A stretch of DNA of 64,000 nt, taken from NCBI RefSeq assembly GCF_041248615.1, contig NZ_CP158426.1. The stretch is one strand, 5' to 3'. Every line of letters starts with the position of its first letter. Position 1 is the stretch's first letter. The position numbers and the translations under genes are program-made. This document shows, in pieces, positions 7,266-56,154 of this stretch. Origin of the DNA: Escherichia coli (GTDB lineage Bacteria > Pseudomonadota > Gammaproteobacteria > Enterobacterales > Enterobacteriaceae). The notes beneath the pieces were generated by a model. The model ran no database searches and was not told where the DNA came from. It saw only the letters and a program-made list of their open reading frames with translations.

Positions 7266-8192
7266 ATGAATTATTCTTTAAAGCAATTAAAGGTTTTCGT
7301 CACAGTAGCGCAGGAGAAAAGTTTTAGTCGTGCAGGAGAGCGTATCGGCCTGAGTCAGTCGGCAGTAAGTCACAGTGTGAAGGAGCTGGAAAATCATACT
7401 GGTGTTCGCCTGCTGGACAGAACCACGCGTGAAGTGGTGCTTACAGATGCAGGGCAGCAGTTGGCTTTGCGTCTTGAGCGACTGCTGGATGAACTTAACA
7501 GCACGTTGCGCGATACCGGGCGTATGGGGCAACAACTGAGCGGAAAAGTTCGGGTCGCTGCCAGCCAGACCATTTCCGCGCATCTTATTCCGCAATGCAT
7601 TGCTGAAAGTCATCGCCGCTATCCAGATATTCAGTTTGTCCTGCACGATCGTCCGCAGCAGTGGGTGATGGAAAGTATTCGCCAGGGAGATGTCGATTTT
7701 GGCATCGTCATCGATCCAGGCCCAGTGGGCGATCTGCAATGTGAAGCGATTCTTTCCGAGCCTTTCTTCTTGCTTTGCCATCGCGATAGCGCTTTGGCCG
7801 CGGAAGATTATGTACCCTGGCAGGCATTACAGGGAGCGAAATTGGTGTTGCAGGATTACGCGTCAGGCAGCCGACCGCTGATTGACGCAGCGCTGGCGCG
7901 CTATGGTATTCAGGCGAATATTGTGCAGGAGATTGGACATCCGGCGACGCTGTTCCCGATGGTAGCCGCAGGCATCGGCATTAGTATTCTTCCCGCACTG
8001 GCGCTGCCATTGCCTGAAGGTAGCCCACTGGTGGTGAAGCGCATTACGCCGGTGGTGGAACGCCAGTTGATGCTGGTGCGCAGGAAAAACCGTTCACTTT
8101 CCACCGCCGCACAAGCGTTATGGGACGTGGTACGAGACCAGGGCCGTGCTCTAATGGCTGGGCGGGAAGGGGATCCGCTGTATCAGATATAG
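7266..8192 (+). CDS. yfeR: LysR-family transcriptional regulator
   Basis: 308 aa with N-terminal HTH ([38 protein letters not shown]), divergent from yfeH. Confidence 0.85.
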
Positions 8193-11644: not shown

Positions 11645-12529
11645 ATGGAACGCGTATATAGAACAGATCTTAAGTTGCTCCGTTATTTTCTTGCAGTAGC
11701 GGAAGAGTTGCATTTTGGTCGCGCAGCAGCGCGTTTAAATATGTCTCAGCCTCCGCTCAGTATTCATATTAAAGAGCTGGAAAATCAACTCGGCACGCAG
11801 CTTTTTATTCGCCATTCGCGCAGCGTCGTACTGACACACGCGGGCAAAATCTTGATGGAAGAATCGCGTCGATTGTTGGTGAATGCAAATAATGTATTGG
11901 CTCGGGTTGAACAAATAGGTCGGGGAGAAGCAGGGCGGATTGAACTCGGGGTTGTGGGAACGGCAATGTGGGGACGGATGCGCCCGGTTATGCGGCGATT
12001 CCTTAGAGAAAATCCTAACGTTGAAGTTCTGTTTCGCGAAAAGATGCCTGCGATGCAAATGGCCTTGCTGGAACGCCGCGAACTTGATGCCGGAATCTGG
12101 AGAATGGCGACAGAACCACCGACTGGTTTTACCAGCTTACGGTTGCATGAATCGGCGTTTCTGGTGGCGATGCCTGAAGAGCATCATCTCTCATCATTTT
12201 CCACCGTCCCGCTGGAAGCGCTAGGTGACGAGTATTTCGTTACAATGCCGCCCGTGTACACTGACTGGGATTTTTTGCAGCGAGTTTGCCAGCAGGTGGG
12301 ATTTTCACCGGTTGTTATTCGCGAAGTTAATGAACCGCAAACGGTACTCGCCATGGTCAGTATGGGTATTGGTATCACATTGATAGCGGACAGCTACGCG
12401 CAGATGAACTGGCCCGGTGTCATATTCCGTCCGCTCAAAGAACGCATCCCGGCAGACTTATATATTGTTTATGAAACGCAGCAGGTGACGCCCGCGCTGG
12501 TTAAACTGCTGGCGGCGTTGGCGCAGTAG
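11645..12529 (+). CDS. xapR: LysR-family activator of xapAB
   Basis: 294 aa from MERVYRTDLKLLRYFLAVAEELHFGRAAARLNMSQPPLS; track start 11630 is an over-extension. Confidence 0.9.
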   Translation: MERVYRTDLKLLRYFLAVAEELHFGRAAARLNMSQPPLSIHIKELENQLGTQLFIRHSRSVVLTHAGKILMEESRRLLVNANNVLARVEQIGRGEAGRIELGVVGTAMWGRMRPVMRRFLRENPNVEVLFREKMPAMQMALLERRELDAGIWRMATEPPTGFTSLRLHESAFLVAMPEEHHLSSFSTVPLEALGDEYFVTMPPVYTDWDFLQRVCQQVGFSPVVIREVNEPQTVLAMVSMGIGITLIADSYAQMNWPGVIFRPLKERIPADLYIVYETQQVTPALVKLLAALAQ

Positions 12530-12639: not shown

Positions 12640-12715
12640 TGGTGGGTCGTGCAGGATTCGAACCTGCGACCAATTGATTAAAAGTCAACTGCTCTACCAA
12701 CTGAGCTAACGACCC
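12640..12715 (-). tRNA. lysV: tRNA-Lys (anticodon UUU)
   Basis: Reverse complement reads GGGTCGTTAGCTCAGTTGGTAGAGCAGTTGACTTTTAATCAATTGGTCGCAGGTTCGAATCCTGCACGACCCACCA. Confidence 0.9.
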
Positions 12716-12719
12716 GAAG

Positions 12720-12795
12720 TGGTGGGTGATGACGGGATCGAACCGCCGACCCCCTCCTTGTAAGGGAGGTGCTCTCCCAGCTGAGCTAATCACCC
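12720..12795 (-). tRNA. valY: tRNA-Val (anticodon UAC)
   Basis: Reverse complement reads GGGTGATTAGCTCAGCTGGGAGAGCACCTCCCTTACAAGGAGGGGGTCGGCGGTTCGATCCCGTCATCACCCACCA. Confidence 0.9.
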
Positions 12796-12841
12796 ACTTC
12801 GGTACTTCACATTGTTACAAGAAATTTAGCTGGCGAGAAAG

Positions 12842-12917
12842 TGGTGGGTGATGACGGGATCGAACCGCCGACCCCCTCCTTGTAAGGGAGGTGCTCTCCC
12901 AGCTGAGCTAATCACCC
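12842..12917 (-). tRNA. valX: tRNA-Val (anticodon UAC)
   Basis: Second identical 76-nt tRNA-Val unit. Confidence 0.9.
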
Positions 12918-12961
12918 ACTTCTCAATTTCTTGCTACACGGCGGAGACTACATAAAGTAGT

Positions 12962-13037
12962 TGGTGGGTGATGACGGGATCGAACCGCCGACCCCCTCCT
13001 TGTAAGGGAGGTGCTCTCCCAGCTGAGCTAATCACCC
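12962..13037 (-). tRNA. valU: tRNA-Val (anticodon UAC)
   Basis: Third identical 76-nt tRNA-Val unit, first gene of the valU-valX-valY-lysV operon. Confidence 0.9.
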
Positions 13038-15735: not shown

Positions 15736-15811
<76 letters not shown>

Positions 15812-15850
15812 AATTTTGCACCCAGCAAATTTGGTACGTAAACGCATCGT

Positions 15851-15926
<76 letters not shown>

Positions 15927-37644: not shown

Positions 37645-37872
37645 CTATCGCACAGGATGGATAAGATAATTCGCCTTTGTCGGAAAAGGGGGCGGAATTT
37701 CTTCTGTGAGGTTTAATGGTGGCGCATCTTCTCTCATTTTTAACAAAATCGCCTGTGATGGCTGAAATTTTGTAGAGTGAGTTGTCGTCATCGCTGACGT
37801 TTTTTCCGTCTCTTTATAGCTCGTCTCACTTCCACCACCAGAAATGGAAAATGCAAAAACATTGCATGCCAT
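37645..37872 (-). pseudogene. ypdI: Probable 5'-truncated ypdI (lipoprotein gene) abutting IS1
   Basis: 75-codon ORF MACNVFAFSISGGGSETSYKETEK... whose upstream frame runs straight into the IS1 left end at 37878; no signal peptide remains. Confidence 0.45.
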
Positions 37873-37932
37873 AATAGGGTGATGCTGCCAACTTACTGAT
37901 TTAGTGTATGATGGTGTTTTTGAGGTGCTCCA

Positions 37933-38208
37933 GTGGCTTCTGTTTCTATCAGCTGTCCCTCCTGTTCAGCTACTGACGGGGTGGTGCGTAACGGCAAAAG
38001 CACCGCCGGACATCAGCGCTATCTCTGCTCTCACTGCCGTAAAACATGGCAACTGCAGTTCACTTACACCGCTTCTCAACCCGGTACGCACCAGAAAATC
38101 ATTGATATGGCCATGAATGGCGTTGGATGCCGGGCAACCGCCCGCATTATGGGCGTTGGCCTCAACACGATTTTCCGCCATTTAAAAAACTCAGGCCGCA
38201 GTCGGTAA
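37933..38208 (+). CDS. insA: IS1 InsA
   Basis: 91 aa [43 protein letters not shown]... Confidence 0.95.
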
Positions 38209-38630
38209 CCTCGCGCATACAGCCGGGCAGTGACGTCATCGTCTGCGCGGAAATGGACGAACAGTGGGGATACGTCGGGGCTAAATCGCGCCAGCGCTGG
38301 CTGTTTTACGCGTATGACAGGCTCCGGAAGACGGTTGTTGCGCACGTATTCGGTGAACGCACTATGGCGACGCTGGGGCGTCTTATGAGCCTGCTGTCAC
38401 CCTTTGACGTGGTGATATGGATGACGGATGGCTGGCCGCTGTATGAATCCCGCCTGAAGGGAAAGCTGCACGTAATCAGCAAGCGATATACGCAGCGAAT
38501 TGAGCGGCATAACCTGAATCTGAGGCAGCACCTGGCACGGCTGGGACGGAAGTCGCTGTCGTTCTCAAAATCGGTGGAGCTGCATGACAAAGTCATCGGG
38601 CATTATCTGAACATAAAACACTATCAATAA
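38127..38630 (+). CDS. insB: IS1 InsB frame (expressed as InsAB' by -1 frameshift)
   Basis: 167-aa [19 protein letters not shown]... overlapping the insA 3' end in the -1 frame. Confidence 0.9.
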
Positions 38631-38646
38631 GTTGGAGTCATTACCT

Positions 38647-39222
38647 AATGCATTAAGTGCTGTGCGCGATGTATTGCGCGAGAACCAGGATATTTATTTA
38701 GTTAATGAAGGTGCAAATACCCTGGATAATGCACGAAATATTATTGATATGTATAAACCACGTCGCCGTCTGGATTGTGGTACCTGGGGTGTCATGGGCA
38801 TCGGTATGGGCTATGCCATCGGTGCTAGCGTGACCTCTGGTTCTCCGGTTGTCGCCATTGAAGGTGATAGTGCTTTTGGTTTCAGTGGGATGGAGATTGA
38901 AACGATTTGTCGATATAACCTGCCGGTGACGATCGTTATTTTTAATAATGGCGGCATTTACAGAGGAGACGGTGTTGATCTCAGTGGCGCTGGTGCACCA
39001 TCACCAACGGATCTGCTGCACCATGCAAGGTATGACAAATTAATGGATGCGTTTCGTGGCGTTGGCTATAACGTCACTACGACAGATGAACTTCGTCATG
39101 CTTTAACCACCGGTATTCAGTCGCGCAAACCGACCATTATTAATGTGGTCATCGACCCTGCAGCAGGAACTGAAAGTGGCCATATTACCAAACTTAACCC
39201 AAAACAAGTCGCTGGTAATTAA
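38647..39222 (+). pseudogene. oxc: oxc 3' remnant (C-terminal ~192 codons of oxalyl-CoA decarboxylase)
   Basis: Frame [27 protein letters not shown]...[33 protein letters not shown] is the TPP-binding C-terminal domain; N-terminal two-thirds absent; the track ORF begins at a TTG inside the IS1 right end (38632). Confidence 0.85.
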
Positions 39223-48943: not shown

Positions 48944-50275
48944 TTATGAACGGCCTTTTGCCAGATATTGCTCCATCTCTTCTTCCGGCACCATTCCACC
49001 TCCCGTCGCCCACACCAGATGAGTGGCATTACGCAGTTGTTCTGCGCTGAAACCGTGCATCTGTTGGTAACTTACTGATGCGCACACGCGCTGAGGCCCG
49101 GCCATACCCGCCAGTGCCGAAGGTTCAAGACGAATACCTTCTTCCTGCGCCAGCCAGCCAAGCATGTCATACATGGTTTGATCGCTAAGGGTATAGAAGC
49201 CATCCAGTAGACGCTCCATTGCCCGCCCGACAAAGCCTGATGCGCGACCAACTGCAAGGCCATCCGCTGCGGTAAGGTTGTCGATACCAATATCCTGAAC
49301 AGAAATCTGATCGTGTAATCCTGTATGGACGCCTAGCAGCATACAAGGGGAGTGCGTTGGTTCGGCAAAAAAGCAGTGAACATGATCGCCAAATGCCAGT
49401 TTAAGCCCGAATGCGACGCCACCAGGACCACCGCCAACACCACACGGCAGATAGACAAACAGTGGGTTATCAGCATCGACAATACGACCTTGCTCGGCAA
49501 ATTGCGCTTTAAGACGCTGGCCTGCGACGGAATACCCAAGGAACAACGTGCGGGAATTCTCGTCATCAATAAAGAAACAGTTCGGGTCAGACTGCGCTAC
49601 TTTACGTCCTTCCTCGACGGCAACACCATAATCTTGCTCATATTCCACGACCGTAACGCCATGGCTGCGCAGTTTCGCTTTTTTCCATGCCCGGGCATCA
49701 GCAGACATATGTACTGTCACCTTAAAGCCAATGCGGGCGCTCATAATGCCGATTGATAACCCCAGATTTCCGGTTGAGCCCACAGCAATGCTGTATTGAC
49801 TAAAGAACTGTTTAAACTCCGGAGAAAGCAGTTTGCTGTAGTCATCTTCAATCGTCAGCAACCCCGCTTCCAGAGCCAGTTTTTCTGCATGTGCCAGGAC
49901 TTCATAAATCCCGCCGCGTGCTTTTATGGAGCCGGAAATGGGCAAATGGCTATCTTTTTTCAGTAGCAGTTGCCCGCTGATCGGTTGTTGATATTCCTTT
50001 TCCAGCCGTTTTTGCATAGCCGGAATGGCAACCAGTTCTGATTCAATAATCCCCCCAGTAGCAGCAGTTTCAGGAAATGCTTTTGCCAGATAGGGTGCAA
50101 AACGGGATAAGCGCGCATGGGCGTCCTGAACATCCTGTTCGGTCAGGCCAACATAAGGTAAACCTTCAGCCAATGAGGTCGTGCCAGGATTAAACCAGGT
50201 GGTTTCTTTAAGAGCAACCAGATCCTTTACCAACGGATACTGGGCGATGAGCGAGTTCATTTTAGCGTTTTCCAT
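48944..50275 (-). CDS. dsdA: D-serine ammonia-lyase (dehydratase)
   Basis: 443-aa PLP enzyme, [20 protein letters not shown]..., recognised as DsdA. Confidence 0.95.
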
Positions 50276-50292
50276 AGTACGTCTCTTTGCGC

Positions 50293-50511
50293 TTAGATGA
50301 TAAATGACAGCAGGAATGTGCCCGCCAGAGCGACGACTGAAGCGATAAATGTCGCGGTCGTATAGTATTTAAATGTTTCATTGAGCGTAGCGTCGCAATA
50401 TTGCTTCACCAGCCAGAAAAGCGAGTCCGTAACGATCGTGCAGCCAATCGCACCTGAACCGATAGCAATCGCAATAATTTCCGGGCTGATGTCGGGATAC
50501 AGCGGCAGCAC
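50293..50511 (-). pseudogene. dsdX: dsdX 3' remnant (last ~70 codons of the D-serine permease gene)
   Basis: Frame ...[71 protein letters not shown] is a GntP-family C-terminus; the upstream frame hits a stop within 15 nt, so the 5' ~85% of the gene is absent. Confidence 0.8.
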
Positions 50512-50753
50512 AATGATCCATATTTATATTTTCTTCTCCAGATTGGCGATGCCAGTTGGCATGTTTTACCTACTTGCCTACATGGTTACTCGTTGGCGAG
50601 AACAGAGGCGGAATTGGGTACAATTGTCCGGGAATTATTGTTATTTTTTATTGTATTGCCGTGTCGGGTGATAGGGCGTCGAGAATATCGTTGGATCTCG
50701 CCAGTGACGTCTGTTTCTGCTACAGTGCCCGTTTTACGGCAAACGGCTTGGGT

Positions 50754-51749
50754 ATGGCTTCATTAAAGGATGTCGCACGCCTGGCGGGAGTGTCGATGAT
50801 GACAGTCTCCCGGGTGATGCATAATGCAGAATCTGTGCGTCCTGCAACGCGTGATCGCGTATTGCAGGCAATCCAGACCCTGAATTATGTTCCTGATCTT
50901 TCCGCCCGTAAGATGCGCGCTCAAGGACGTAAGCCGTCGACTCTCGCCGTGCTGGCGCAGGACACGGCCACCACTCCTTTCTCTGTTGATATTCTGCTTG
51001 CCATTGAGCAAACCGCCAGCGAGTTCGGCTGGAATAGTTTTTTAATCAATATTTTTTCTGAAGATGACGCTGCCCGCGCGGCACGTCAGCTGCTTGCCCA
51101 CCGTCCGGATGGCATTATCTATACAACAATGGGGCTGCGACATATCACGCTGCCTGAGTCTCTGTATGGTGAAAATATTGTATTGGCGAACTGTGTGGCG
51201 GATGACCCAGCGTTACCCAGTTATATCCCTGATGATTACACTGCACAATATGAATCAACACAGCATTTGCTCGCGGCGGGCTATCGTCAACCGTTATGCT
51301 TCTGGCTACCGGAAAGTGCGTTGGCAACAGGGTATCGTCGGCAGGGATTTGAGCAGGCCTGGCGTGATGCTGGACGAGATCTGGCTGAGGTGAAACAATT
51401 TCACATGGCAACAGGTGATGATCACTACACCGATCTCGCAAGTTTACTCAATGACCACTTCAAATCTGGCAAACCAGATTTTGATGTTCTGATATGTGGT
51501 AACGATCGCGCAGCCTTTGTCGCTTATCAGGTTCTCCTGGCGAAGGGGGTACGTATCCCGCAGGATGTCGCCGTAATGGGCTTTGATAATCTGGTTGGCG
51601 TCGGGCATCTGTTTTTACCGCCGCTGACCACAATTCAGCTTCCACATGACATTATCGGGCGGGAAGCTGCATTGCATATTATTGAAGGTCGTGAAGGGGG
51701 AAGAGTGACGCGGATCCCTTGCCCGCTGTTGATCCGTTGTTCCACCTGA
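50754..51749 (+). CDS. cscR: Sucrose operon repressor (LacI family)
   Basis: 331 aa from MASLKDVARLAGVSMMTVSRVMHN (LacI-type HTH); track start 50556 is a TTG over-extension. Confidence 0.9.
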   Translation: MASLKDVARLAGVSMMTVSRVMHNAESVRPATRDRVLQAIQTLNYVPDLSARKMRAQGRKPSTLAVLAQDTATTPFSVDILLAIEQTASEFGWNSFLINIFSEDDAARAARQLLAHRPDGIIYTTMGLRHITLPESLYGENIVLANCVADDPALPSYIPDDYTAQYESTQHLLAAGYRQPLCFWLPESALATGYRRQGFEQAWRDAGRDLAEVKQFHMATGDDHYTDLASLLNDHFKSGKPDFDVLICGNDRAAFVAYQVLLAKGVRIPQDVAVMGFDNLVGVGHLFLPPLTTIQLPHDIIGREAALHIIEGREGGRVTRIPCPLLIRCST

Positions 51750-51756
51750 TATTATG

Positions 51757-53190
51757 TTAACCCAGTTGCCAGAGTGCTCCATGTTGCAGCACAGCCACTC
51801 CGTGGGAGGCATAGAGCGACAGTTCCCGTTCTTCTGGCTGCGGATATATTCGGCTACTCATCACCGCCTCCCCGTCGTTAATAAATACTTCCACGGATGA
51901 TGTATCGATAAATATCCTTAGGGCGAGCATGTCACCCTGCGGGAGGGGAATACTACGGTAGCCATCTAAATTCTCGTGTGGGTAATACCGCCACAAAACA
52001 AGTCGCTCAGATTGGTTATCAATATACAGCCGCATTCCAGTGCCGAGCTGTAATCCGTAATGTTCGGCATCACTGTTCTTCAGCGCCCACTGCAACTGAA
52101 TCTCAACTGCTTGCGCGTTTTCCTGCAAAACATATTTATTGCTGATTGTGCGGGGAGAGATAGATTGATGCTGCTGGCGTAACGACTCAGCTTCGTGTAC
52201 CGGGCGTTGTAGAAGTTTGCCATTGCTCTCTGATAGCTCGCGCGCCAGCGTCATGCAGCCTGCCCAGCCTTCACGTTTTGAGGGCATTGGCGATTCCCAC
52301 ATATCCATCCAGCCGATAACAATACGCCGACCATCCTTCGCTAAAAAGCTTTGTGGTGCATAAAAGTCATGCCCGTTATCAAGTTCAGTAAAATACCCGG
52401 ATTGTGCAAAAAGTCGTCCTGGCGACCACATTCCGGGTATTACGCCACTTTGAAAGCGATTTCGGTAACTGTATCCCTCGGCATTCATTCCCTGCGGGGA
52501 AAACATCAGATAATGCTGATCGCCAAGGCTGAAAAAGTCCGGACATTCCCACATATAGCTTTCACCCGCATCAGCGTGGGCCAGTACGCGATCGAAGGTC
52601 CATTCACGCAATGAACTGCCGCGATAAAGCAAGATCTGCCCCGTGTTGCCTGGATCTTTCGCCCCGACAACCATCCACCATGTGTCGGCTTCACGCCACA
52701 CTTTAGGATCGCGGAAGTGCATGATGCCTTCTGGTGGAGTGAGGATCACGCCCTGTTTCTCGAAATGAATACCATCCCGACTGGTAGCCAGACATTGTAC
52801 TTCGCGAATTGCATCGTCATTACCAGCACCATCGAGCCAGACGTGTCCGGTGTAGATAAGTGAGAGGACACCATTGTCATCGACAGCACTACCTGAAAAA
52901 CACCCGTCTTTGTCATTCTCGTCTCCTGGCGCTAGCGCAATAGGCTCATGCTGCCAGTGGATCATATCGTCGCTGGTGGCATGTCCCCAGTGCATTGGCC
53001 CCCAGTGTTCGCTCATCGGGTGATGTTGATAAAACGCGTGATAACGATCGTTAAACCAGATCAGGCCGTTTGGATCGTTCATCCACCCGGCAGGAGGCGC
53101 GAGGTGAAAATGGGGATAGAAAGTGTTACCTCGGCGCTCGTGAAGTTTTGCTAGTGCGTTTTGCGCCGCATGTAATCGAGATTGCGTCAT
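51757..53190 (-). CDS. cscA: Sucrose-6-phosphate hydrolase / invertase (GH32)
   Basis: 477 aa from MTQSRLHAAQNALAKL; GH32 motifs WMNDPNG and RDP. Confidence 0.9.
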   Translation of the reverse strand: MTQSRLHAAQNALAKLHERRGNTFYPHFHLAPPAGWMNDPNGLIWFNDRYHAFYQHHPMSEHWGPMHWGHATSDDMIHWQHEPIALAPGDENDKDGCFSGSAVDDNGVLSLIYTGHVWLDGAGNDDAIREVQCLATSRDGIHFEKQGVILTPPEGIMHFRDPKVWREADTWWMVVGAKDPGNTGQILLYRGSSLREWTFDRVLAHADAGESYMWECPDFFSLGDQHYLMFSPQGMNAEGYSYRNRFQSGVIPGMWSPGRLFAQSGYFTELDNGHDFYAPQSFLAKDGRRIVIGWMDMWESPMPSKREGWAGCMTLARELSESNGKLLQRPVHEAESLRQQHQSISPRTISNKYVLQENAQAVEIQLQWALKNSDAEHYGLQLGTGMRLYIDNQSERLVLWRYYPHENLDGYRSIPLPQGDMLALRIFIDTSSVEVFINDGEAVMSSRIYPQPEERELSLYASHGVAVLQHGALWQLG

Positions 53191-53405
53191 TTTTATCATC
53201 CTGGTTAAGCAAATTTGGTGAATTGTTAACGTTAACTTTTATAAAAATAAAGTCCCTTACTTTCATAAATGCGATGAATATCACAAATGTTAACGTTAAC
53301 TATGACGTTTTGTGATCGAATATGCATGTTTTAGTAAATCCATGACGATTTTGCGAAAAAGAGGTTTATCACTATGCGTAAGTCAGATGAATTTAAGGGA
53401 AAAAA

Positions 53406-54329
53406 ATGTCAGCCAAAGTATGGGTTTTAGGGGATGCGGTCGTAGATCTCTTGCCAGAATCAGACGGGCGGCTACTGCCTTGTCCTGGCGGCGCGCCAGC
53501 TAACGTTGCGGTGGGAATCGCCAGATTAGGCGGAACAAGTGGGTTTATAGGTCGGGTCGGTGATGATCCTTTTGGTGCGTTAATGCAAAGAACGCTGCTA
53601 ACTGAGGGTGTCGATATCACGTTTCTGAAGCAAGATGAATGGCACCGGACATCCACGGTGCTTGTCGATCTGAACGATCAAGGAGAACGTTCATTTACGT
53701 TTATGGTCCGCCCCAGTGCCGATCTTTTTTTAGAGACGACAGACTTGCCCCGCTGGCGACATGGCGAATGGTTACATCTCTGTTCAATTGCGTTGTCTGC
53801 CGAGCCTTCGCGTACCAGCGCATTTACTGCGATGACGGCGATCCGGCATGCCGGAGGTTTTGTCAGCTTCGATCCCAATATTCGTGAAGATCTATGGCAA
53901 GACGAGCATTTGCTCCGCTTGTGTTTGCGGCAGGCGCTACAACTGGCGGATGTCGTCAAGCTCTCGGAAGAAGAATGGCGACTTATCAGTGGAAAAACAC
54001 AGAACGATCGGGATATATGCGCCCTGGCAAAAGAGTATGAGATCGCCATGCTGTTGGTGACTAAAGGTGCAGAAGGGGTGGTGGTCTGTTATCGAGGACA
54101 AGTTCACCATTTTGCTGGAATGTCTGTGAATTGTGTCGATAGCACTGGGGCGGGAGATGCGTTCGTTGCCGGGTTACTCACAGGTCTGTCCTCTACGGGA
54201 TTATCTACAGATGAGAGAGAAATGCGACGAATTATCGATCTCGCTCAACGTTGCGGAGCGCTTGCAGTAACAGCGAAAGGGGCAATGACAGCGCTGCCAT
54301 GTCGACAAGAACTGGAAGGTGAGAAGTAA
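53406..54329 (+). CDS. cscK: Fructokinase (pfkB/ribokinase family)
   Basis: 307 aa, MSAKVWVLGDAVVDLL...GAGDAF motifs. Confidence 0.9.
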   Translation: MSAKVWVLGDAVVDLLPESDGRLLPCPGGAPANVAVGIARLGGTSGFIGRVGDDPFGALMQRTLLTEGVDITFLKQDEWHRTSTVLVDLNDQGERSFTFMVRPSADLFLETTDLPRWRHGEWLHLCSIALSAEPSRTSAFTAMTAIRHAGGFVSFDPNIREDLWQDEHLLRLCLRQALQLADVVKLSEEEWRLISGKTQNDRDICALAKEYEIAMLLVTKGAEGVVVCYRGQVHHFAGMSVNCVDSTGAGDAFVAGLLTGLSSTGLSTDEREMRRIIDLAQRCGALAVTAKGAMTALPCRQELEGEK

Positions 54330-54390: not shown

Positions 54391-55638
54391 ATGGCACTGA
54401 ATATTCCATTCAGAAATGCGTACTATCGTTTTGCATCCAGTTACTCATTTCTCTTTTTTATTTCCTGGTCGCTGTGGTGGTCGTTATACGCTATTTGGCT
54501 GAAAGGACATCTAGGATTAACAGGGACGGAATTAGGTACACTTTATTCGGTCAACCAGTTTACCAGCATTCTATTTATGATGTTCTACGGCATCGTTCAG
54601 GATAAACTCGGTCTGAAGAAACCGCTCATCTGGTGTATGAGTTTCATTCTGGTCTTGACCGGACCGTTTATGATTTACGTTTATGAACCGTTACTGCAAA
54701 GCAATTTTTCTGTAGGTCTAATTCTGGGGGCGCTCTTTTTTGGCCTGGGGTATCTGGCGGGATGCGGTTTGCTTGACAGCTTCACCGAAAAAATGGCGCG
54801 AAATTTTCATTTCGAATATGGAACAGCGCGCGCCTGGGGATCTTTTGGCTATGCTATTGGCGCGTTCTTTGCCGGTATATTTTTTAGTATCAGTCCCCAT
54901 ATCAACTTCTGGTTGGTCTCGCTATTTGGCGCTGTATTTATGATGATCAACATGCGTTTTAAAGATAAGGATCACCAGTGCATAGCGGCGGATGCGGGAG
55001 GGGTAAAAAAAGAGGATTTTATCGCAGTTTTCAAGGATCGAAACTTCTGGGTTTTCGTCATATTTATTGTGGGGACGTGGTCTTTCTATAACATTTTTGA
55101 TCAACAACTCTTTCCTGTCTTTTATGCAGGTTTATTCGAATCACACGATGTAGGAACGCGCCTGTATGGTTATCTCAACTCATTCCAGGTGGTACTCGAA
55201 GCGCTGTGCATGGCGATTATTCCTTTCTTTGTGAATCGGGTAGGGCCAAAAAATGCATTACTTATCGGTGTTGTGATTATGGCGTTGCGTATCCTTTCTT
55301 GCGCGCTGTTCGTTAACCCCTGGATTATTTCATTAGTGAAGCTGTTACATGCCATTGAGGTTCCACTTTGTGTCATATCCGTCTTCAAATACAGCGTGGC
55401 AAACTTTGATAAGCGCCTGTCGTCGACGATCTTTCTGATTGGTTTTCAAATTGCCAGTTCGCTTGGGATTGTGCTGCTTTCAACGCCGACTGGGATACTC
55501 TTTGACCACGCAGGCTACCAGACAGTTTTCTTCGCAATTTCGGGTATTGTCTGCCTGATGTTGCTATTTGGCATTTTCTTCCTGAGTAAAAAACGCGAGC
55601 AAATAGTTATGGAAACGCCTGTACCTTCAGCAATATAG
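54391..55638 (+). CDS. cscB: Sucrose:H+ symporter (MFS oligosaccharide:H+ symporter family)
   Basis: 415-aa 12-TM MFS protein, LacY-like. Confidence 0.9.
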   Translation: MALNIPFRNAYYRFASSYSFLFFISWSLWWSLYAIWLKGHLGLTGTELGTLYSVNQFTSILFMMFYGIVQDKLGLKKPLIWCMSFILVLTGPFMIYVYEPLLQSNFSVGLILGALFFGLGYLAGCGLLDSFTEKMARNFHFEYGTARAWGSFGYAIGAFFAGIFFSISPHINFWLVSLFGAVFMMINMRFKDKDHQCIAADAGGVKKEDFIAVFKDRNFWVFVIFIVGTWSFYNIFDQQLFPVFYAGLFESHDVGTRLYGYLNSFQVVLEALCMAIIPFFVNRVGPKNALLIGVVIMALRILSCALFVNPWIISLVKLLHAIEVPLCVISVFKYSVANFDKRLSSTIFLIGFQIASSLGIVLLSTPTGILFDHAGYQTVFFAISGIVCLMLLFGIFFLSKKREQIVMETPVPSAI

Positions 55639-56079: not shown

Positions 56080-56154
56080 TGGTGTCCCCTGCAGGAATCG
56101 AACCTGCAATTAGCCCTTAGGAGGGGCTCGTTATATCCATTTAACTAAGAGGAC
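56080..56154 (-). tRNA. argW: tRNA-Arg (anticodon CCU)
   Basis: Reverse complement reads GTCCTCTTAGTTAAATGGATATAACGAGCCCCTCCTAAGGGCTAATTGCAGGTTCGATTCCTGCAGGGGACACCA. Confidence 0.9.

Follow-up and report, generated by a model that had tools for sequence, protein, structure and literature searches.

Gene content of the dsdA-csc locus

The window analysed here is a 64,000-nucleotide stretch of Escherichia coli DNA (contig NZ_CP158426.1), and all coordinates given below refer to it. An earlier, sequence-only reading had drawn attention to the interval 50276-50753, which is flanked by two genes pointing away from each other, dsdA and cscR. The features of the locus, from dsdA to argW, are as follows.

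48944-50275, minus strand: dsdA, D-serine ammonia-lyase; intact ORF of 443 aa, also named dsdA in the annotation of NZ_LT599825.1, a record that is 100 % identical
50276-50292, minus strand: native dsdX-dsdA spacer of 17 nt with the dsdA ribosome-binding region; spacing as in K-12
50293-50510, minus strand: 3' remnant of dsdX, a pseudogene of 218 nt (codons 374-445 plus stop), identified by alignment and profile; 'incomplete, missing N-terminus' in the PGAP annotation
50511-50753, no strand: csc-side non-coding spacer of 243 nt from the junction to the cscR start, presumably with the cscR promoter; no similarity to K-12 dsdX
50754-51749, plus strand: cscR, LacI-family sucrose repressor, 331 aa, convergent with cscA; identified by profile and annotated as cscR in strain AHB7
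51757-53190, minus strand: cscA, sucrose hydrolase (invertase) of 477 aa, with transcription running towards cscR and dsdA; TIGR01322, 477 bits
53406-54329, plus strand: cscK, fructokinase, 307 aa; NF006957, 506.8 bits against a cut-off of 450
54391-55638, plus strand: cscB, sucrose:H+ symporter of the MFS, 415 aa; TIGR00882, 594.6 bits
55718-55900, minus strand: short DUF4942 remnant ORF between cscB and argW, taken from the annotation of an identical record
56080-56154, minus strand: argW, tRNA-Arg(CCT), the island boundary

All four csc genes were thus present, in the order cscR(+), cscA(-), cscK(+), cscB(+). The island extends from argW to the truncated dsdX, followed by dsdA, and both dsdC and the promoter region of dsdX were absent; the position and the absence are each those of the csc-type argW-dsd allele. 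The argW gene has been described as a recombination hot spot (Jahreis 2002, cited in PMC4366372 and PMC11251922). The locus is the classical csc allele of the argW-dsd region in E. coli, in which cscRAKB stands in place of dsdC and of the 5' portion of dsdX.

The dsdA gene had been called intact, and this was confirmed: the reading frame was free of internal stops, and its product was 98.6 % identical to K-12 DsdA with all 442 residues covered. Profile matches were full-length and at the equivalog level (TIGR02035, 810.8 bits against a cut-off of 368; NF002823, 777.1 bits against a cut-off of 246), and the PLP lysine K118 was retained within the SGSIKARGG motif. At the end of the gene (48944-48949) the stop codon TAA was changed to TCA, which adds one C-terminal Ser (443 versus 442 aa). 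Since the dsd+ strain M160133 shares this TAA to TCA variant, the extra residue is a lineage allele unrelated to the csc junction.

The dsdX remnant and its junction with the csc island

Nucleotides 1121-1338 of the 1338-nt K-12 dsdX gene were aligned by blastn to window positions 50510-50293 (97.7 %, E=2e-104). The encoded stub corresponds to residues 374-445 of the 445 residues of DsdX; only positions 374-445 of the profile NF007395 were matched, with 144 bits against a cut-off of 618, and what was found is therefore a fragment rather than a complete permease of the GntP family (about 445 aa). In the alignments, dsdX homology ended between 50510 and 50511, with csc DNA from 50511 on, and the dsdX frame was closed by a minus-strand TAA at 50524-50526, on the csc side. 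The sequence-only reading had described this arrangement correctly, with about 70 remaining codons (72 were aligned), a stop near the junction at 50512-50526, and an interval end at 50753, the base just before the cscR ATG at 50754.

Small differences between strains were seen on both sides of the junction. At 50393, which is 118 nt before the dsdA ATG, a SNP changes Gly to Asp in the dead dsdX frame; among seven aligned sequences it was private to the lineage of the window and isolate NRZ14408, and a weak internal dsdA promoter has been placed nearby in the literature. Within the spacer that precedes cscR, 12-bp deletions were found in PRO_A-1412 (near 50677-50688) and in AHB7 (near 50541-50553), and these are allelic differences within the probable cscR promoter region.

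Comparison with known loci

The gene order of the window, emrY, dsdA, dsdX', cscR, cscA, cscK, cscB and the argW side, was the same as in EDL933 (z3623-z3626) and in sucrose-positive strains of the EC3132/W type. Over 2.9 kb across the junction, EDL933 and the window were 98.7 % identical in one piece over the full query length, with the same dsdX breakpoint base, a stub of like length (219 nt as annotated) and a cscR spacer that was alike except for SNPs. The differences comprised two substitutions in DsdA together with the additional C-terminal Ser of the window, several base differences in the stub and the csc spacer, and the content of the cscB-argW interval, where a DUF4942 remnant adjoins argW in the window whereas EDL933 has a recombinase gene.

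Strains with an intact dsdCXA locus, K-12 and the UPEC strain CFT073, share the left flank (emrKY, evgAS) with the window, and their dsdA, dsdX-dsdA spacer and last 218 nt of dsdX were homologous to it (~98 %). Beyond this point they possess codons 1-373 of dsdX, the divergent promoter region and dsdC, whereas the window has the csc genes instead.

Closest genomes and other features of the window

Compared with NZ_LT599825.1 (isolate NRZ14408), the window was a 100 % match except for a 3,671-bp deletion beside an IS1 element. This IS1 (768 bp) is located at 37878-38645, with flanks at about 37850-39222. The 3,671 bp missing directly to its left relative to NRZ14408 comprise the 5' end of ypdI, yfdX, frc and the 5' part of oxc, and only a 3' fragment of oxc remains to the right of IS1. 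A target-site duplication at IS1 was seen in neither the window nor NRZ14408, which suggests IS1-mediated adjacent deletions. The left IS1 junction of the window was found in none of 5426 complete genomes. The window also contains two ordinary E. coli tRNA operons, one on the minus strand at 12640-13037 (Lys(UUU) and three Val(UAC)) and one on the plus strand at 15736-15926 (two Ala(GGC)).

Loss of dsdC and search for a second dsd locus

By blastn, no significant match to dsdC or to the 217-nt intergenic region between dsdX and dsdC was obtained anywhere in the 64-kb window. A tblastn search of the same 64 kb with DsdC returned only remote LysR paralogues, with 28 % and 42 % identity, at 7272-7778 and 11669-11848, and the earlier statement that dsdC is missing from the window was thereby borne out.

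It had also been proposed that the rest of the genome be searched for a second dsdCXA copy. Relatives rather than the source strain were used here, namely the two closest complete genomes, NZ_LT599825.1 and NZ_OW967178.1, both of which were 100 % identical to the window around the dsdA-csc locus. They were searched for dsdC with a chimeric query that joined the left IS1 junction to K-12 dsdC, and no match to K-12 dsdC was obtained in either. With a query containing all of dsdA, no second dsdA was found in the two genomes (a single match place, for example, in NZ_LT599825.1), and no second dsdCXA was thus found elsewhere in these relatives. In addition, of the 40 genomes that were nearest to the window over the lpxP-ypdI test segment, 39 had no dsdC. 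Since its closest relatives lack dsdC and a second dsdA, a second dsdCXA copy in the source strain is unlikely.

Distribution of the junction among E. coli genomes

To count the junction, a 2.9-kb query comprising dsdA, the stub, the junction and cscR was required to be covered to at least 80 % in one place. The same nucleotide-exact junction was found in 2660 of 5426 complete E. coli genomes, about half, including O157:H7 EDL933. In the remaining genomes the match broke off at query position 1611, which is window position 50510, and was followed by full dsdX. A second match place was present in one of 30 csc+ genomes in a spread sample. It has also been reported that some csc+ strains retain dsdC or even possess both loci (PMC11251922).

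A multiple alignment was made of six csc+ sequences of different backgrounds (the window, EDL933, O22:H8, a bloodstream isolate, a Tanzanian faecal ESBL isolate and AHB7), and the breakpoint base was identical in all six. The alleles of dsdA and of the stub followed the host background and not csc status. For example, DsdA of the csc+ strain PRO_A-1412 is identical to the K-12 protein (WP_000426427.1), with one synonymous change in the gene, and the dsdA of csc+ AHB7 was nearly identical to that of dsd+ ECAMP047. Because dsdA alleles track the background while the breakpoint is constant, these facts suggest one event that was spread by recombination. The simplest reading would be one ancient replacement, later carried from lineage to lineage through homologous recombination at the argW hot spot. 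The same recombination account is given in the literature (PMC4366372 and PMC11251922, quoting Jahreis 2002).

The arrangement is therefore an ordinary, very common allele class that has long been known, and it adds no new biology. The mutual exclusion of csc and D-serine use was already described by Alaeddinoglu and Charles in 1979 (quoted in PMC4366372 and PMC11251922), and later accounts of the locus and its consequences include those attributed to Jahreis et al. 2002 and Moritz and Welch 2006 and the studies of Connolly et al. 2015 (PMC4366372) and O'Boyle et al. 2020 (PMC7486766).

Integrity of dsdA in csc+ strains

The dsdA gene was intact in five of the six csc+ sequences, the window included. 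The exception was AHB7 (NZ_OZ547152.1, a bloodstream isolate; L007 148-1476), which has the same junction and a dsdA with an internal stop that is annotated as a pseudogene, and this indicates that the orphan dsdA decays in some lineages. Selection was assessed by pairwise NG86 dN/dS on six csc+ and five dsd+ dsdA alleles. The ratios were similar in the two groups, about 0.03-0.26, and near-identical alleles were common to both. Since csc+ and dsd+ strains share alleles, dsdA divergence cannot be assigned to the orphan state. Apart from the csc+ strains, O145 strain RM8995-C1 (NZ_CP031355.1; L009 1494-1811) has a dsdX-type locus, not csc, yet its dsdX is frameshifted, which is another route to disruption of the dsd locus.

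Expression and phenotype of the orphan dsdA

Published data are available for EDL933. It has been reported that acquisition of cscBKAR in this strain removed dsdC and truncated dsdX, and that the system does not work in the absence of DsdC (O'Boyle et al. 2020, PMC7486766). The EDL933 derivative TUV93-0 did not grow on D-serine and its growth was inhibited by D-serine; in the EDL933 work, D-serine in glucose medium lowered the growth rate from 0.63 to 0.19 per hour (PMC7486766). EHEC was able to grow on D-serine only with plasmid-borne dsdA supplied in trans, and over 1591 genomes a strong segregation was seen between intact dsdCXA and the LEE island (Connolly et al. 2015, PMC4366372). The dsdA gene has been called a silent enzyme gene, and D-serine-tolerant variants had lost 1,120 bp or 5,637 bp in the region around cscR; in variant LCV2 (1,120 bp deletion), dsdA transcription was increased 33-fold by RNA-seq (PMC7486766). 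Activation was explained by the placement of dsdA under read-through from cscAp or z3622p after deletion of the cscR region, and D-serine was then consumed. In gfp fusions the wild-type context gave 63-134 RFU, versus 2001 RFU for the cscAp fusion (PMC7486766). The expectation of the sequence-only reading, that D-serine detoxification would be impaired or reliant on adventitious transcription from the csc side, is supported by these EDL933/TUV93-0 data, which concern the same junction.

The accompanying statement that the native promoter and its activator are gone holds only in part. The inducible, DsdC-dependent dsdX promoter is lost, but published work places a weak dsdA promoter about 115 bp before the ATG of dsdA (PMC7486766), and since this position falls within the retained dsdX stub, a weak DsdC-independent promoter is kept. 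A consensus scan, which is weak evidence, found no sigma-70-like site on either strand in 50200-53500, versus 3.7 expected by chance, and an adventitious junction promoter for dsdA was thus left unsupported. A scan for minus-strand terminator-like sites between the cscA stop and the dsdX stub found none, so that read-through from cscAp is structurally possible in the intact arrangement. The single minus-strand match, at 50327-50308, is native dsdX 3' sequence, which lies between dsdX and dsdA in dsd+ strains also.

Taken together, the best explanation, in which we have high confidence as a whole, is a csc allele with a silent orphan dsdA. A single ancestral recombination would have put cscRAKB in place of dsdC, of the control region between the divergent dsdC and dsdX, and of dsdX nucleotides 1-1120; dsdA is therefore without both the DsdC-activated promoter and the activator. 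Upstream of dsdA this would leave the 218-nt dsdX stub, in which a weak internal promoter would act constitutively, and 243 nt of non-coding DNA from the csc side. Judging from other strains, dsdA would probably be transcribed only at a low basal level. The strain is predicted to be sucrose-positive, fermenting sucrose slowly under CscR control, and to be inhibited by D-serine and unable to use it for growth. The dsdA gene may then act as a silent reserve, which deletions in the cscR area could re-activate through the stub from the minus-strand cscA promoter or another upstream promoter.

Alternative explanations

It might instead be supposed that dsdA is conditionally expressed. Sucrose would lift CscR repression, a transcript from cscAp would run antisense through cscR and the stub, and detoxification would be sucrose-dependent rather than lost. 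The layout allows for this, as dsdA shares its strand with cscA, only 7 nt lie between the stop codons of cscA and cscR, and the scan between the cscA stop and the stub was free of minus-strand terminator-like sites. Furthermore, an isogenic cscR deletion made EHEC D-serine-tolerant, and this was reversed by cscR in trans (PMC7486766). However, the authors of that study credited mainly the changed chromosomal context and not derepression alone, and their wild-type gfp fragment from cscAp to dsdA gave only low fluorescence. The intactness of dsdA in five of six csc+ sequences and the dN/dS of 0.04-0.26 among intact csc+ alleles would also fit a gene still in use, but the low ratios cannot be dated to after csc acquisition because the alleles are shared with dsd+ backgrounds, and one sampled csc+ genome has an internal stop in dsdA. 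We consider sucrose-dependent expression unlikely. It is similarly doubtful that the csc allele rewires detoxification and does not abolish it, with dsdA kept intact in many csc+ lineages for its conditional usefulness, either through cscA read-through or as a silent reserve that small and frequent deletions activate.

A second complete dsdCXA elsewhere in the genome, as in K1/NMEC strains, would make the strain D-serine-positive and the orphan dsdA irrelevant. Two copies do occur in some E. coli (attributed to Moritz and Welch 2006; NMEC strain CE10, PMC7486766), and up to 3-4 match places per genome were seen in the collection. This reading is very unlikely here, given the one dsdA place in NZ_LT599825.1, the zero dsdC places in both NZ_LT599825.1 and NZ_OW967178.1, and the lack of dsdC in nearly all of the 40 genomes closest over the lpxP-ypdI segment. 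The probability that the junction arose through faulty assembly, or through a deletion private to this strain, is close to nil, and this reading was ruled out by the identical junction in 2660 independently assembled complete genomes and by the shared breakpoint base in the six aligned sequences.

Biological meaning

In E. coli, the csc/dsd polymorphism is a textbook-level case of gene exchange linked to the niche. Urine is rich in D-serine. This compound has a toxic effect on csc-type strains, and in EHEC the type III secretion system is repressed by it; for dsdCXA+ strains it is a nutrient. For the window, the finding serves only to classify the strain, as csc-type with a predicted sucrose-positive and D-serine-sensitive phenotype.
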